A DNA stretch of 45,042 bases from positions 1 to 45,042 of the IMG/VR virus record IMGVR_UViG_2563366951_000002, one strand, 5' to 3'. The position numbers and the translations under genes were made by a program. The notes beneath the pieces are model-generated. The model did not search any database, was not told where the DNA came from, and saw only the letters and a program-made list of their open reading frames with translations. Position 1 is the stretch's first letter. The number at the start of each line of letters is the position of its first letter. Positions 1-45,042 of the stretch are shown piece after piece. Source of the stretch: a virus. Its lineage: Duplodnaviria > Heunggongvirae > Uroviricota > Caudoviricetes.

Positions 1-1284
1 TTACTTCTTCGCCTCTGCAACCACTTTGCTACCCACGCCGCGGTTATTGTATTCCCACATGCGGTTGTAGTTAGTGTCATTCAGATTGCGCTGTATTTCG
101 TCGTTATCATCTACGCTGCCGGTATTACCCGCAAACGGACGATTAGAGATCACCGCATCAGCCCACGGTTTAGCCGTGTTAAAACCTTCGTTGATGGCGC
201 TATCACGGATCACCACCTGACCGTTGGTATTGGCATCAACATCCAGCGAGCGGCCCAGTTGCGCCACACCATCACCGAAAGCATTGAAACGGCTGTTTAC
301 GGCGAGGAAACCGTAGTAAATGTTGGACAGCGTAGCCGGTGCAAACACATACGCTTCTTGCTGAGTACGTGAGTTCACCACGCGGAATTCGGTGTTATCG
401 AACACCACTGCGCCGCGACCAGAAACGATATCCACATCCCCTTCAATGTAGCTGTTGGTCACCAGCGTACGCGGCTGACGATTCGTTTCCAGACGGTTCT
501 GCACACCGCTGTTGGTGACAAAGAAGGTGTTCTGACGACCGAGAATGTTAACGTTGTTAATCTGTACCTGGTCACCATCAGTACGCAGTGCCACCGCCGG
601 ATGGTTACCTGCATCTACGCTATCGCCCAGCGTGTTTTCGATGGTCAGATTTTGCAGTTGCAGGCCATTGTTTTGTGACCAGAAGACCGCAGAGCAGAGA
701 ACACCGATACTGTCGCTGCGTTTGCTCTGGCAGCTATCGTACATATACCACGCTGGTTTACCTGGCATATATTTGCCGCGCGGGTTGACGTCGTGACGCC
801 AGTCGGTAGGGCTCATGCCACCATCAAGGGAAAGCCCAATCTTCACATCAATCGGTTTTTCACCTGTACCGTACAGAGTAATTCCACCCGGAGCGGCAGG
901 GACATATACCGTTCCCTGATACTCACCAGGCATCACGGCAATATACTGGCGCTTGTTGGTACGCTTGATAATTGCCGCATCTACCGCCGCCTGAATCGTG
1001 GTATGCGTTACACCTTGAGTGCCCGCCGGGCCGACAACAAATTCAGGTTGCGCAGGCAGGGTAATCGGGGAAGGATTCCACGCTGCAGCACCTGGTGTCA
1101 GGGATGCAAAATAGTGTTGAGCATCGAAATTCTGCGCTTCTTTTGCCGACAGAATCGGGCGAGAAGAGGTACCAGGCGCGGTTTGATCAGAAGGACGTTG
1201 ATCGGGCGGGGTTGAGCTACAGGCGGTCAGCGTCACGCCAAAAGCCAATGCCAGCGCCAGACGGGAAACTGAAAATGTGTTCAC
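1..1284 (-). CDS. ybhC: YbhC outer-membrane lipoprotein (pectinesterase-fold thioesterase family); host gene on the gal side of attB-lambda
   Basis: Complete 427-aa ORF from the track, GTG start; N-terminal lipoprotein signal with LTAC lipobox; recognised by recall as E. coli ybhC, consistent with position next to the lambda att core. Confidence 0.85.
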   Translation of the reverse strand: MNTFSVSRLALALAFGVTLTACSSTPPDQRPSDQTAPGTSSRPILSAKEAQNFDAQHYFASLTPGAAAWNPSPITLPAQPEFVVGPAGTQGVTHTTIQAAVDAAIIKRTNKRQYIAVMPGEYQGTVYVPAAPGGITLYGTGEKPIDVKIGLSLDGGMSPTDWRHDVNPRGKYMPGKPAWYMYDSCQSKRSDSIGVLCSAVFWSQNNGLQLQNLTIENTLGDSVDAGNHPAVALRTDGDQVQINNVNILGRQNTFFVTNSGVQNRLETNRQPRTLVTNSYIEGDVDIVSGRGAVVFDNTEFRVVNSRTQQEAYVFAPATLSNIYYGFLAVNSRFNAFGDGVAQLGRSLDVDANTNGQVVIRDSAINEGFNTAKPWADAVISNRPFAGNTGSVDDNDEIQRNLNDTNYNRMWEYNNRGVGSKVVAEAKK

Positions 1285-2685: not shown

Positions 2686-2992
2686 CGCAAAGTCTCCGCA
2701 ATTACACGCAAGAAAAAACCGCCTGATGGCGGTTTTGTGTTCTTTCAGTTCTTCAATTCGAATATTGGTTACGTCTGCATGTGCTATCTGCGCCCATATC
2801 ATCAAGTGGTCATAGCAGTCGTTGAAGTCCTCTGCTTCGATAACCCTGTTGAATGGTTCTCCATTCCATTCACCTGTGACTCGAAAGTGCATTTATCATC
2901 TCCATAAAGCAAAACTCGCCGTAGCGAGTTCAGATAAAAGAAATCCCCGCGAGTGCGAGGATTGTTATTCACCTTTAACGGCAAGTTGCAGG

Positions 2993-8623: not shown

Positions 8624-9007
8624 TCACCTCGCCGTCAGTTGTTTTGATTTCCGGTAGCCTGCCGCGTAAATGGCTACGTTTGGAAGACATACACCAGTTT
8701 CTGGTTGCTTATGTCCAAACTCATTCGCGTACACAATGGCCGCTCGCTCCAGATTGCGTCTGTATTCTTTCTGTTGCCAGATCACGTCCTGTGCCATGAA
8801 CTTAATTGGCTTAGCGTCTTCTATGCGCTCAGGCGTTTCGTGAGTACCTTTAGCCTGAATCTGCGCTCTGCTTAGAGTAGGGCGGTGTAATACTTCTGAA
8901 CTTATTGCTTCTTCGCGGGCCAGTACGCCGTTAGCTAATGCCTTTGCCTTTAAACGCTCACGACGACGAGAACGTGAATTGCCTTTGAACTGAGTTCTGC
9001 GTGTCAT
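8624..9007 (-). CDS. N: Antitermination protein N, P22/phage-21 type (127 aa)
   Basis: ATG at 9005-9007 with AGGAGG upstream; N-terminal arginine-rich motif (NSRSRRRERLKAKA); C-terminus ...YAAGYRKSKQLTAR resembles P22-type N as recalled; first gene downstream of pL and nutL. Confidence 0.7.
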   Translation of the reverse strand: MTRRTQFKGNSRSRRRERLKAKALANGVLAREEAISSEVLHRPTLSRAQIQAKGTHETPERIEDAKPIKFMAQDVIWQQKEYRRNLERAAIVYANEFGHKQPETGVCLPNVAIYAAGYRKSKQLTAR

Positions 9008-9172: not shown

Positions 9173-9187
9173 GCGCTTTGTCAGCGC
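9173..9187 (-). promoter_or_regulatory. nutL boxB hairpin
   Basis: Minus-strand sequence GCGCTGACAAAGCGC: 5-bp stem with GACAA pentaloop, the P22-type boxB as recalled; lies in the N leader between pL and the N start. Confidence 0.7.
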
Positions 9188-9409: not shown

Positions 9410-10069
9410 TTAACTAAATGTCTCTTCAGGCCACTGGCTGGCGATAACTTTCCCTACTACGGAACAGCTATCATTGCATGGGATCATTGGATATTGCGGG
9501 TTTAGTGGTTGTAGGAACACCTGACCGCTATCCCTGATCAGTTTCTTGAAGGTAAACTCCTCACCACCAAGTCTGGCTATGCAGAAATCACCTGGCTCAA
9601 CAGCCTGCTCAGGGTCAACGAGAATTAACATCCCGTCAGGAAAACTTGGCTTGGATCCTGTTGGTGCGGTCATGGAATTACCTTCAACTTCAAGCCAAAA
9701 CGCACAATCACTGGCTTTTTTGGTTGTGCTGACCCATCTCTCCGCATCACCTTTGGTAAAGGTTCTAAGCTCAGGCGAGAACATCCCGGCCTGAACATGA
9801 GAAAAAACAGGGTACTCATATTGTTTTTTTACGGGGGCAGATGAGTATTCGCCAACAGGTGAAAATGTACCGTCGTGGTTGAATGAGACGTTATCAATAC
9901 CAAGGTATTTAAACACCACACCAATCTCGTCAAGAGATGGATGACGAGATCCGCGCAACCAGTGACCAATTCCACCCTGCGTCATACCAAGCTCTTCAGC
10001 TAACTTCTCTTGAGTTATGCCGAGCTCTTTCATTCTGGATCTAGCCAGTTCATACCATTTCATTTTCAT
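9410..10069 (-). CDS. cI: CI-type prophage repressor (HTH domain plus S24/LexA-like peptidase domain, about 219 aa)
   Basis: Internal ATG at 10067-10069 with AAGGA upstream gives [37 protein letters not shown]... (HTH); C-terminal half has S24 self-cleavage domain character; divergent from cro; the track ORF extends to 10144. Confidence 0.8.
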
Positions 10070-10125
10070 ATCCTTATTATTACGCTCTGTACTAAAACCA
10101 TCCATGCACAAGATGTATTTTTTGT

Positions 10126-10154
10126 TTGCATTCCAAGAGTACATATCGTATTAT
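10126..10154 (+). promoter_or_regulatory. pR promoter with overlapping operator (OR)
   Basis: TTGCAT, 17-nt spacer, TATTAT; AGTACATATCGTATT overlaps the spacer and -10 and is near-identical to the pL operator. Confidence 0.6.
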
Positions 10155-10406: not shown

Positions 10407-10452
10407 CGCTATTTTCACAATGGACATTCGTCCTACGTCGCTGACAAAGCGA
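10407..10452 (+). promoter_or_regulatory. nutR (boxA-like element plus boxB hairpin)
   Basis: boxB TCGCTGACAAAGCGA at 10438-10452 has the same GACAA pentaloop as nutL; upstream CCGCTATTTTCACAA resembles boxA (CGCTCTT(T)A...ACAA). Confidence 0.55.
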
Positions 10453-10536: not shown

Positions 10537-10833
10537 ATGGAACAAACAAGTTACAGCAAACTATCACAGCGCGACGTTGATCGCGCTGAAACTGATTTAC
10601 TCATCAACCTGTCAACGCTTACCCAGCGCGGTCTGGCAAAGATGATTGGCTGTCATGAATCGAAGATAAGCAGAACGGACTGGAGATTTATTGCTTCGGT
10701 CTTGTGTGCTTTCGGAATGGCATCAGACATCAGTCCGATTAGCAGGGCTTTTAAGTATGCGCTTGATGAAATCACAAAGAAAAAATCCCCGGCCGCCACC
10801 GAGGATTTTAAGCAAATTGATATGCAATTCTGA
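10537..10833 (+). CDS. cII: CII-like transcriptional activator (98 aa)
   Basis: C-terminus ...KKKSPAATEDFKQIDMQF resembles lambda CII (...KKRPAATERSEQIQMEF); HTH-like segment; position between cro and the replication genes. Confidence 0.75.
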   Translation: MEQTSYSKLSQRDVDRAETDLLINLSTLTQRGLAKMIGCHESKISRTDWRFIASVLCAFGMASDISPISRAFKYALDEITKKKSPAATEDFKQIDMQF

Positions 10834-42211: not shown

Positions 42212-42603
42212 TGAAATATGCAGTCATTGAAAACGGGAATGTTATAAACATTATTGAACTAGATGATTCAGAAATGCTTCCTGGAACCGAGTTAGAAATT
42301 ATACCTGAAGGTGAAGTTGTAGATATAGGCTATAAGTGGGTTGGAACGACATTTGAACCTCCACCAAAGCCAGATCTGACTGACACAGAACGCCTGGAAT
42401 TAATTACGATTCAGAGAGATGAGCGGATTTCAGCTGCTTTAAACTATGTATCATTTAACAACCTAAATGCAAAATTGTTGCTAAATATGCTTTCTGATGA
42501 GGAAAAAAACCTTTACGCTTCAATAATTAAATACGTTGATACACTTAGGGGTATGCAGTTCAATTCTTTATCTGAAATAAAGTGGCCTGCTCTCCCGTAC
42601 TAG
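42211..42603 (+). CDS. Tail fibre assembly protein (Tfa-like, 130 aa)
   Basis: MKYAVIENGNVINIIELDD... and position after the fibre gene with TAATG coupling. Confidence 0.65.
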   Translation: MKYAVIENGNVINIIELDDSEMLPGTELEIIPEGEVVDIGYKWVGTTFEPPPKPDLTDTERLELITIQRDERISAALNYVSFNNLNAKLLLNMLSDEEKNLYASIIKYVDTLRGMQFNSLSEIKWPALPY

Positions 42604-42642: not shown

Positions 42643-43686
42643 TTACCCTGTAAATATGCTCATGATTATCTTTGAAGCGCGTTTACTTTCAAGGTGGCTA
42701 GATATCATTTTCACTAATTTTACTTGTGAATACACAACTAATAATGCAAGTGTATAAGTTACAATAAATGTTATCACAAAGTTTAAACTGAGTTTGTGGC
42801 ACATTAATATGAATAAAATGTGCCACAGATAAAGCCATATTGAGTTTTCTGAAGTAAATTTGACAAGTGTCCATGCAACAGTATTTTTTAAGCGAGCCAC
42901 AATGGCATCAGCATATAAATAAACCAGTGTGCTAACGAATACAGCATAGGATAAATAGTAAATCCCCGGGGGGTATTTATCAATTTGTGTTGGGATAAAG
43001 GAATTATCTACAAAGTAAAAATCAATAACTAAGAAAAAGAACAGGGACGCAGAACAAATAATCAACAGTAAAATTTGCTTTTTGTCTAAACTCATTAGTT
43101 TATAGCCGATTAAAAATACAAACATATAAGGTATAGTGTTTGCAATATAGGAGCCGATGAGAACCATTTTGTTCATTTCGTCAAGCTCTTTATAGAAACT
43201 TTTGAATTGACTATTAATAATTACGGTGAGAGCAAAAAAAGATAGTAGATACAACATTCTTGCATTGAGTAATTTCTTTGGTAAGAATATCGCAATTGTC
43301 GAAATTATGAAAAAAAGCCTTATAACCCAAACATATCCCAATCCGCTAGATAACGTAAATGAGGTAATTATATGCCCTTGTGGATAAGTGAAGTTTTTAA
43401 TATTAAATGCTAAGGCAAGACATTCATTTATTACGAAGAAAAAACCAAAGAAAATCCATGTAGGAAGAACTAATCGACGAAAGCGCGAGGCGATATAACC
43501 TAGTTTGTCTTTATGTCTTTCCTCTGTCACATAAAATGACATTCCCATGACCATAAACATTAAAGGTACATCGAAGTTACGCAGTTGAGCTAGCCATAAA
43601 GGAGGCTGGACATGGGCTAGAATGATTAGAGAAAGCCCGAGAAATCTTAAAAAATCTATTTTATCAATACGCATGACTTCGTCCAT
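42643..43686 (-). CDS. Acyltransferase-3 family integral membrane protein (O-antigen acetylase-like, 347 aa)
   Basis: ORF from track; about ten hydrophobic segments; N-terminal FLRFLGLSLIILAHV typical of acyltransferase_3; very AT-rich codon usage unlike neighbours; opposite strand to the tail genes, next to attR. Confidence 0.7.
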   Translation of the reverse strand: MDEVMRIDKIDFLRFLGLSLIILAHVQPPLWLAQLRNFDVPLMFMVMGMSFYVTEERHKDKLGYIASRFRRLVLPTWIFFGFFFVINECLALAFNIKNFTYPQGHIITSFTLSSGLGYVWVIRLFFIISTIAIFLPKKLLNARMLYLLSFFALTVIINSQFKSFYKELDEMNKMVLIGSYIANTIPYMFVFLIGYKLMSLDKKQILLLIICSASLFFFLVIDFYFVDNSFIPTQIDKYPPGIYYLSYAVFVSTLVYLYADAIVARLKNTVAWTLVKFTSENSIWLYLWHILFILMCHKLSLNFVITFIVTYTLALLVVYSQVKLVKMISSHLESKRASKIIMSIFTG

Positions 43687-44267
43687 TAGATTTTATAGAT
43701 CAACGATTATACATTAGTATTGATCGGCTATGACACCATTGCTTATAGGTATGCTCTCTGTTGTATGAGTACAGCTCAGGAGCTTCGCCTTGGTTTGTTA
43801 TAGCTTACGGTGCCGATTTACGATGTCGGAGTGCCGACACCGTATCGCAAATTCCCGGTAGGCAGTGGTTAGACACGATGCAGGCCGCCGGTGATTGTTG
43901 AGACTGGCAGCCTGCATAATTTACAGCCCAACCTGGCGAACTGTCGGGAACTCAGATACCAGCCACATATCGGCTTCTTCAAACATATCCTCGTTTCTGG
44001 TCAAGTGAGGAGTGAAAATTCATGTGCCATTTTTGTGTCACACAAGGTGAAGCATCTAACATTGTCTTGCATCATGTGCCATTAAGTTTCTTATAGTGAA
44101 TGCGGCAATGTGTATGTAAAACAGCTAGTTAAATGTGATTCTACTAATTCGTAATGCGAAGGTCATGTGACGTTACCGTCTATCCAGTACGCCCACCATT
44201 GCATCATTTCTCTGCGCTTATCGAGATACTGAGCATGGTTGTAAATTCAGCAAACGACGTAATGTGT

Positions 44268-44314
44268 TTGACAAAAAATTAGCGCAAGAAGACAAAAAAA
44301 TCACCTTGCGCTAA
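44268..44314 (-). terminator. sib/tI-like hairpin distal to int across the att site
   Basis: 10-bp perfect inverted repeat TTAGCGCAAG...CTTGCGCTAA with 16-nt loop; on the minus strand followed by TTTTTTGT; lies just beyond the P arm, where lambda places sib/tI. Confidence 0.5.
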
Positions 44315-44323
44315 TGCTCTGTT

Positions 44324-44367
44324 ACAGGTCACTAATACCATCTAAGTGGTTGATTCATAGTGACTGG
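44324..44367. promoter_or_regulatory. P-arm Int arm-type sites (P1, P2)
   Basis: acaggtcactaat and inverted catagtgactgg match the lambda P1/P2 arm-type site pattern. Confidence 0.55.
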
Positions 44368-44460
44368 ATATGTTGTGTTTTGTAGCATTATGCAGTCTAT
44401 TTTTTAGACTAAAGATATTGTAACACATTGATATTAATGTTTTTTAATGTTTCGCGTTCA

Positions 44461-44475
44461 GCTTTTTTATACTAA
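44461..44475. other. attR core
   Basis: GCTTTTTTATACTAA followed by host attB right half (cttgagcgaaacggg). Confidence 0.9.
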
Positions 44476-44534
44476 CTTGAGCGAAACGGGAAGGTAAAAA
44501 GACAAAAAGTTGTTTTTAATACCTTTAAGTGATA

Positions 44535-44557
44535 CCAGATGGCATTGCGCCATCTGG
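44535..44557. terminator. Perfect hairpin downstream of ybhB (candidate host terminator)
   Basis: CCAGATGGC attgc GCCATCTGG, 9-bp stem; weak U-tract. Confidence 0.4.
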
Positions 44558-44565
44558 CAGAGTGA

Positions 44566-45042
44566 TTAACTAAACATCGCAGTAATCGAGGCGCTTGCCA
44601 GAGAGTGGAAATGAACGTTAAACCCGACCATCGCGCCGCTGGCACCTTCATCGACATCAATACGTTCTATATCCAGCGCGTGAACGGTAAAAATGTAGCG
44701 ATGAGTTTCGCCTTTCGGCGGTGCTGCGCCATCGTACCCGGTTTTACCAAAGTCGGTACGCGTCTGCAAAACGCCGTCTGGCATTGCTACCAGACCAGAG
44801 CCAAACCCTTGCGGTAATACGCGGGTATCAGCGGGTAAGTTAACAACTACCCAGTGCCACCAGCCGGAGCCGGTTGGCGCATCCGGGTCGTAGCAGGTGA
44901 CAACAAAACTTTTCGTTCCCGCAGGAACATCATCCCACGCCAGATGCGGTGAAATATTATCGCCATCGTAACCCATGCCGTTAAAGACATGACGATGCGG
45001 CAATTTATCGCCATCGCGCAGATCGTTACTGATGAGTTTCAT
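44566..45042 (-). CDS. ybhB: YbhB, PEBP/kinase-inhibitor-family protein (158 aa); host gene on the bio side of attB-lambda
   Basis: Complete ORF from track, ATG at 45040-45042; recognised by recall as E. coli ybhB. Confidence 0.85.
   Translation of the reverse strand: MKLISNDLRDGDKLPHRHVFNGMGYDGDNISPHLAWDDVPAGTKSFVVTCYDPDAPTGSGWWHWVVVNLPADTRVLPQGFGSGLVAMPDGVLQTRTDFGKTGYDGAAPPKGETHRYIFTVHALDIERIDVDEGASGAMVGFNVHFHSLASASITAMFS

Follow-up and report, generated by a model that had tools for sequence, protein, structure and literature searches.

The window, as we call the whole stretch of DNA analysed here (45,042 nt), contains a 43-kb prophage inserted in the lambda attB site of Escherichia coli (gal-bio), with ybhC and ybhB as its flanks. 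The 15-bp lambda core GCTTTTTTATACTAA is found exactly twice in the window, and the two copies, both on the plus strand and assigned by core sequence match, mark attL (1331–1345) and attR (44461–44475). Outside the attL core lies a host gene, an ORF of the pectinesterase family (1–1284, minus strand), which we take to be ybhC from its position beside attB. On the right, a PEBP-family gene (44566–45042, minus strand) is annotated in E. coli genomes as ybhB next to bioA. Within the prophage, the P′ arm of attL (1346–1418) is 100% identical to lambda and is followed by two genes on the minus strand: int (1419–2489; 356 aa), whose product is identical to lambda Int at 352 of 356 residues, and xis (2467–2685; 72 aa), identified by alignment with lambda xis (97% over the region). 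The P arm of attR, delimited by alignment with the P arm of lambda attP, occupies 44323–44460. Additionally, a 12-bp perfect inverted repeat (TGCTTTTTTATA / TATAAAAAAGCA) spans the attL core and extends into the P′ arm (1330–1365); it surfaced in the count of chance repeats given below.

The hairpin studied here directly adjoins the P arm (plus strand 44268–44322, TTTGACAAAAAATTAGCGCAAGAAGACAAAAAAATCACCTTGCGCTAATGCTCTGT). A sequence-only reading had described it as a 10-bp perfect inverted repeat with a U-tract on the minus strand, located at 44268–44314 just beyond the P arm. Indeed, the 10-bp arms are present (TTAGCGCAAG at 44279–44288 and CTTGCGCTAA at 44305–44314); the perfect repeat is in fact 11 bp long, with a left arm at 44278–44288 (plus strand ATTAGCGCAAG) and a right arm at 44305–44315 (plus strand CTTGCGCTAAT), which in the minus-strand RNA form the 3′ and the 5′ arm of the upper stem, respectively. 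The U-tract was confirmed as U6 running from 44278 to 44273 on the minus strand, where the sequence directly 3′ of the stem is TTTTTTGTC and the longer reading after the stem is UUUUUUGUC. A repeat search extended the dyad, imperfectly, to 18 nt per arm with 83% complementarity (44271–44288 / 44305–44322). The hairpin thus lies where the sequence-only reading had placed it, whereas the complete element, as defined by RNA folding and by its match to lambda 27534–27585, spans 44271–44322 on the minus strand and reaches 8 nt further to the right. Between the arms is a 16-nt loop (44289–44304, minus strand; RNA GUGAUUUUUUUGUCUU), which carries a U7 run in place of the U5 of lambda and is the sole variable part of the element. 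The placement next to the P arm also held, as the P1 arm-type Int site abuts the element at about 44320–44339 when the lambda 'int 1' footprint (27583–27602) is used as a guide.

Structure prediction for the minus-strand transcript, one of the checks proposed with the sequence-only reading, gave a single continuous hairpin of 21 pairs from 44322 to 44271 with a free energy of −23.9 kcal/mol (z = −6.55), and none of 200 shuffled sequences folded equally well. From its base upwards, the predicted hairpin comprises a lower stem of 6 pairs (ACAGAG with UUUUGU), a 1×1 mismatch, an upper stem of 12 pairs, a second 1×1 mismatch and an apical stem of 3 pairs closing a U6 loop. This 6 + 12 + 3 helix was both the minimum-free-energy and the centroid structure predicted when 121 nt were folded. 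The 12-pair upper stem (−18.9 kcal/mol) followed by U6 has the anatomy of an intrinsic terminator on the leftward transcript, with the U6 tract at 44273–44278 being that of tI; in a read-through RNA, the same tract would form one side of the lower stem. An RNA ending within the U-tract loses 2–4 pairs of the lower stem in the prediction (−19.8 vs −23.9 kcal/mol for the full element). A terminator on the plus strand was ruled out, since no U-tract follows the stem 3′ on that strand; the nearest plus-strand gene ends at 42603 and is separated from the hairpin by a gene on the opposite strand.

A simple terminator and promoter scanner, which accepts loops of 3–8 nt only, passed over the hairpin for that reason, and its silence is hence no evidence against the element. 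An Rfam scan of 43600–45042 (E ≤ 10) matched no model to the element and returned weak chance hits elsewhere (snoR1, sok). The 'Sib' antitoxin sRNA of E. coli (Sib/Ibs toxin-antitoxin) has only its name in common with the element. When the window was simulated with a first-order Markov model, 0.87 perfect 10-bp inverted repeats with a spacer of 3–20 nt were expected per window, and 51% of simulations contained at least one. A bare 10-bp repeat is therefore not unusual, and the significance of the hairpin rests on the z-score of its fold and on its homology to lambda sib.

The sequence-only reading had named the hairpin sib/tI-like, and an alignment that could have shown no correspondence to the lambda sib region showed the opposite. 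The minus strand from 44322 to 44271 matches lambda from 27585 to 27534 at 52 of 52 lambda positions, with two extra U in the loop. A blastn search against lambda records returned a 77-nt match (E = 7e-28), and the surrounding 461 nt matched lambda, 434, HK97, HK022, phi80 and many other lambdoid phages among phage records. In GenBank, the homologous stretch is labelled 'sib retroregulation site' in HK97 (AF069529), 'sib transcription processing site' in HK022 (X51962), 'Transcription terminator tI' in O276 and 'terminator' in 434; the identification as sib or tI was thus borne out by three of these records (HK97, HK022, O276) in addition to the alignment. RNAalifold applied to 11 phages kept the same 20 pairs in its consensus. 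Every stem base of the window is that of wild-type lambda, so the window is wild type at any position of the lambda mutations sib1, sib2, sib3 and hef13 that falls inside the dyad. The details of RNase III, tI and the sib point mutations are reportedly to be found in work by Guarneros et al. 1982, Schmeissner et al. 1984 and Plunkett & Echols 1989.

Conservation was assessed with an IMG/VR scan whose pattern took the P1 site and the lower-stem CAGAG as anchors and was free elsewhere. Together with the named phages, this yielded 127 instances and 74 distinct sequences of 120 nt. Upper-stem pairs were canonical in 72–74 of the 74 sequences, with essentially one pair type at each. Variation was concentrated in the loop, where the U-run ranged from 5 to 8 and the 15-nt loop allele of the window occurred in 4 of the 74. 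Column entropy rose from about 0 to more than 1 bit at 3–4 nt past the U-tract, and the flank beyond GUCA was unrelated. The helix is kept fixed over its full length beside freely recombining DNA, even at the ACAGAG and GU, which termination by itself would not require; the 5′ side of the lower stem was fixed by the search pattern, so invariance on that side is uninformative. RNAalifold found no compensatory pair among the 11 phages, and the 74 sequences held one isolated change from A-U to G-C at the terminal pair. Since the stems never vary, covariation neither backs nor counters the structure. Fixed stems, free loop length and unrelated flanks in the 74 variants agree with the RNA-structure model of lambda sib. 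The element also shows the int-xis-attP-sib block to travel as one unit whose left boundary lies 3–4 nt past the sib helix.

These data bear directly on the idea that the hairpin is a chance inverted repeat without function. About 0.9 perfect 10-bp repeats with short spacers are expected in a window of such size and composition, which speaks for this idea. Against it stand the exact homology to an experimentally characterised element, the fold z-score of −6.55, the lack of variation among 74 distinct sequences with unrelated downstream flanks, and the matches that a 331-nt query (sib, P arm and core) has in 2782 of the 5426 complete E. coli genomes. A chance origin is refuted by homology and conservation, and we regard a functionless repeat as vanishingly improbable.

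Several relatives depart from the invariant pattern. In four IMG/VR instances sib is truncated, with the 5′ arm and loop intact and unrelated DNA (GTAAGCGTAAACCGATCGCC...) in place of the 3′ arm and U-tract; judged from this arrangement, the phages concerned should lack both tI and sib. PPompW-type prophages (PPompW_699, L006, 401–476, and 9 similar IMG/VR instances) carry a C·A in the upper stem, and most instances also have C·A and U·U in the lower stem, which may mark a weakened or decaying retroregulator. In phage BP-4795 (L007, 401–467), the sib hairpin and the P1-like sequence next to it have the type III effector gene nleA on one side and another effector-like ORF on the other, with no annotated att site or int adjacent. 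This arrangement suggests that a relic P arm of lambda type came to be surrounded by inserted accessory genes.

The close contact with P1 raises the question of whether the element is a DNA-level part of the attachment site, prolonging the P arm as a binding region for Int, IHF or Xis, with no role as RNA. Such a role would fit an element that directly adjoins P1, is overlapped by 3 nt by the lambda 'int 1' footprint and always accompanies attP. However, counted from the core centre (44468), it occupies positions −146 to −197, almost wholly outside the minimal lambda attP, which spans about −152 to +82, and the lambda record has no protein-binding feature annotated over it. In addition, a perfect dyad followed by a strand-specific U-tract is the signature of an RNA element, and the loop varies freely in length while the arms are fixed. 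A purely DNA-level function is therefore very improbable.

The geometry given in the sequence-only reading holds in both states of the phage DNA. In the circular phage, the hairpin starts 226 nt past the int stop on the int-coding strand (P′ 73 + core 15 + P 138), downstream of int on the leftward transcript; the spacing between the int stop and sib in lambda is also 226 nt (27586–27811). In the prophage, int lies at attL and the hairpin at attR, and the two are about 42 kb apart, separated by the whole genome. The element confirms that the window holds an intact lambda-type integration module in the gal-bio attB of E. coli.

The partners expected of a retroregulator were found in the same phage. 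The cII-binding repeat TTGC-N6-TTGC (TTGCGTGTAATTGC) in the −35 region of PI (2698–2711, minus strand) is identical to that of lambda, and the homologous site in the 434 record is annotated as the pI promoter and CII binding site. Overall identity to lambda across the region from xis to PI is 97%, with no change in the promoter. The PI activator cII is encoded at 10537–10833 on the plus strand (Pfam PF05269 Phage_CII, E = 5e-32), a CI-type repressor at 9410–10144 on the minus strand and an N-like antiterminator at 8624–9007 on the minus strand (Pfam PF25694 N_peptide, E = 2e-15; phrog_271, E = 3e-39). The phage also encodes a Q-like antiterminator. Between a candidate pL (hexamers TTGACT-17-TACTAT, read by eye) and N lies a boxB-like hairpin, GCGCU-GACAA-AGCGC (9173–9187, minus strand), and its twin is located between cro and cII (10438–10452, plus strand). 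Both have the GACAA pentaloop, and their closing pair is compensated (G-C vs U-A). The surroundings of the two boxB-like copies yielded no canonical boxA (CGCTCTTA). The placement of the two hairpins is the expected nutL/nutR layout.

Since xis, the PI/cII site, cII, an N-like protein and nutL/nutR are present, both int transcript classes of the lambda model, the N-modified one from pL and the unmodified, cII-dependent one from PI, can probably be made, judging by gene and site content. The N protein and the nut sites are of a non-lambda type, and read-through of tI by the N of the window is assumed by analogy. Just upstream of PI (2712–2735, minus strand), we also observed a terminator hairpin whose stem is kept and whose 4-nt loop is the reverse complement of that of lambda (CCGCC-AUCA-GGCGG vs CCGCC-UGAU-GGCGG), with one stem position changed from G·U to A-U. 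Judged from its sequence, this change appears to be an inversion of the hairpin loop.

The first gene that follows sib on its strand encodes a protein of the Acyl_transf_3 family (42643–43686, minus strand; 347 aa) that has no PHROG match and may be a surface-modifying accessory gene. Its position gives weight to the proposal that the hairpin is an intrinsic terminator (tI) and nothing else, which would end PI and other leftward transcripts without RNase III retroregulation and, in the lysogen, would block read-through from ybhB and insulate the acyltransferase gene (43686→42643). The 12-pair stem, GC-containing and with U6 after it on the minus strand, suits this proposal, as does the orientation of ybhB (44566–45042, minus strand), which is transcribed toward the hairpin with the acyltransferase gene downstream on the same strand; two records (434 and O276) name the homologue merely as a terminator. 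However, termination and retroregulation are two activities of the one lambda element and no true alternatives. Moreover, the conserved stretch runs past the U-tract: the lower stem is conserved too, with its ACAGAG upstream and its GU downstream. Retroregulation also has all its partners in this phage. That the hairpin serves as a terminator alone is accordingly improbable in our view.

Taken together, the identity with the lambda sib sequence, the predicted fold, the geometry and the full set of partner elements support the retroregulator interpretation. With high confidence, we consider the element to be the sib/tI of a lambda-type int-xis-attP module, acting as leftward (minus-strand) RNA with an effect that depends on the promoter and on the circular or integrated state of the DNA. 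The mechanism of int retroregulation in lambda has been outlined in a secondary summary (PMC5300877), with further secondary summaries elsewhere (PMC6379469, PMC3530522). By analogy with this established lambda biology, we infer termination, RNase III cleavage and mRNA decay for the window phage as well.

On the lysogenic route, transcripts from cII-activated PI would begin inside xis, encode Int alone and carry no N modification. They would end in the U-tract of the hairpin (tI, 44273–44278), and the terminated RNA, lacking part of the lower stem and ending in a stable 3′ hairpin, would leave the int mRNA stable so that Int is made. On the lytic route, with circular DNA, transcripts from pL would be N-modified at nutL and pass through tI. 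In the read-through RNA, the U-tract and the following GU would pair with the upstream ACAGAG, bringing the helix to about 21 pairs. Host RNase III would be expected to cut this helix; decay from the new 3′ end would then proceed 3′ to 5′ into int, and Int would be under-produced relative to Xis. Upon prophage induction, int at attL and sib at attR would be some 42 kb apart. A transcript from pL would leave int into host DNA (ybhC) and never meet sib, so that both Int and Xis would be made and excision would be possible.

Variation in the loop and the gene beyond the element leave room for further roles. The U5–U8 polymorphism in loop length might tune the balance between termination and cleavage. 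A second job for sib/tI was also considered, in which the element would act in the lysogen as an insulator against ybhB read-through and, after induction, the RNase III cut at sib would set the 5′ end of the read-through RNA that enters the acyltransferase (possibly O-antigen-modifying) gene. If true, this would couple acyltransferase expression to the N/RNase III circuit; we regard these further roles as doubtful. A query spanning the acyltransferase gene and its flank found no locus covered at 80% or more in the 5,426 complete E. coli genomes, and its best matches covered the sib-to-ybhB part only. Strain ETEC4073 carries a different acyltransferase gene at the same spot.

The remainder of the phage has other affinities. 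Its structural module (21000–42600) is myovirus-like, with a DUF3383 protein and baseplate J, and is 95% identical to that of Citrobacter phage Omnitron and related to those of Salmonella SEN34 and Hafnia yong1. The phage is a mosaic of a lambda int-att-sib module, a non-lambda N and immunity region and a myovirus structural module, with a clear mosaic junction. The element itself is the already known lambda sib/tI site in a mosaic relative; it is ordinary, and no new element. As a textbook lambda sib/tI element in a mosaic phage, it carries little weight as a discovery.

Comparison with the known systems shows how far the module extends in each. HK022 and HK97 have the identical hairpin; they differ slightly in the bases immediately 5′ of the lower stem (GAG vs TAA), and the downstream flanks are unrelated. 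In its own record, HK022 has an annotated attP site and an Int of 357 aa, which differ in specificity from those of lambda. Homology with lambda, HK97 and HK022 stops at the base of the sib helix, whereas phage 434 shares the element and a further 84 nt beyond it (44184–44267 of the window), past which the sequences are unrelated. The loop of 434 has U5, unlike the U7 of the window; exactly this U7 allele is found in PhiR70_1 and also in IMG/VR contigs. Lambda sib/tI (27534–27585, minus strand) has the same 52 nt and the same predicted 21-pair structure at the same energy (−23.7 vs −23.9 kcal/mol in the window). It also agrees with the element of the window in its strand, its 226-nt distance 3′ of the int stop, its contact with the Int arm site P1 and the att core; Int is 99% identical, and the PI/cII site is identical. 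In contrast, the apical loop is 2 U longer in the window (U7 vs U5), and the window phage differs from lambda in its N/nut type, its immunity region, its myovirus structural module and the acyltransferase gene that it carries where lambda has the genes of the b region.
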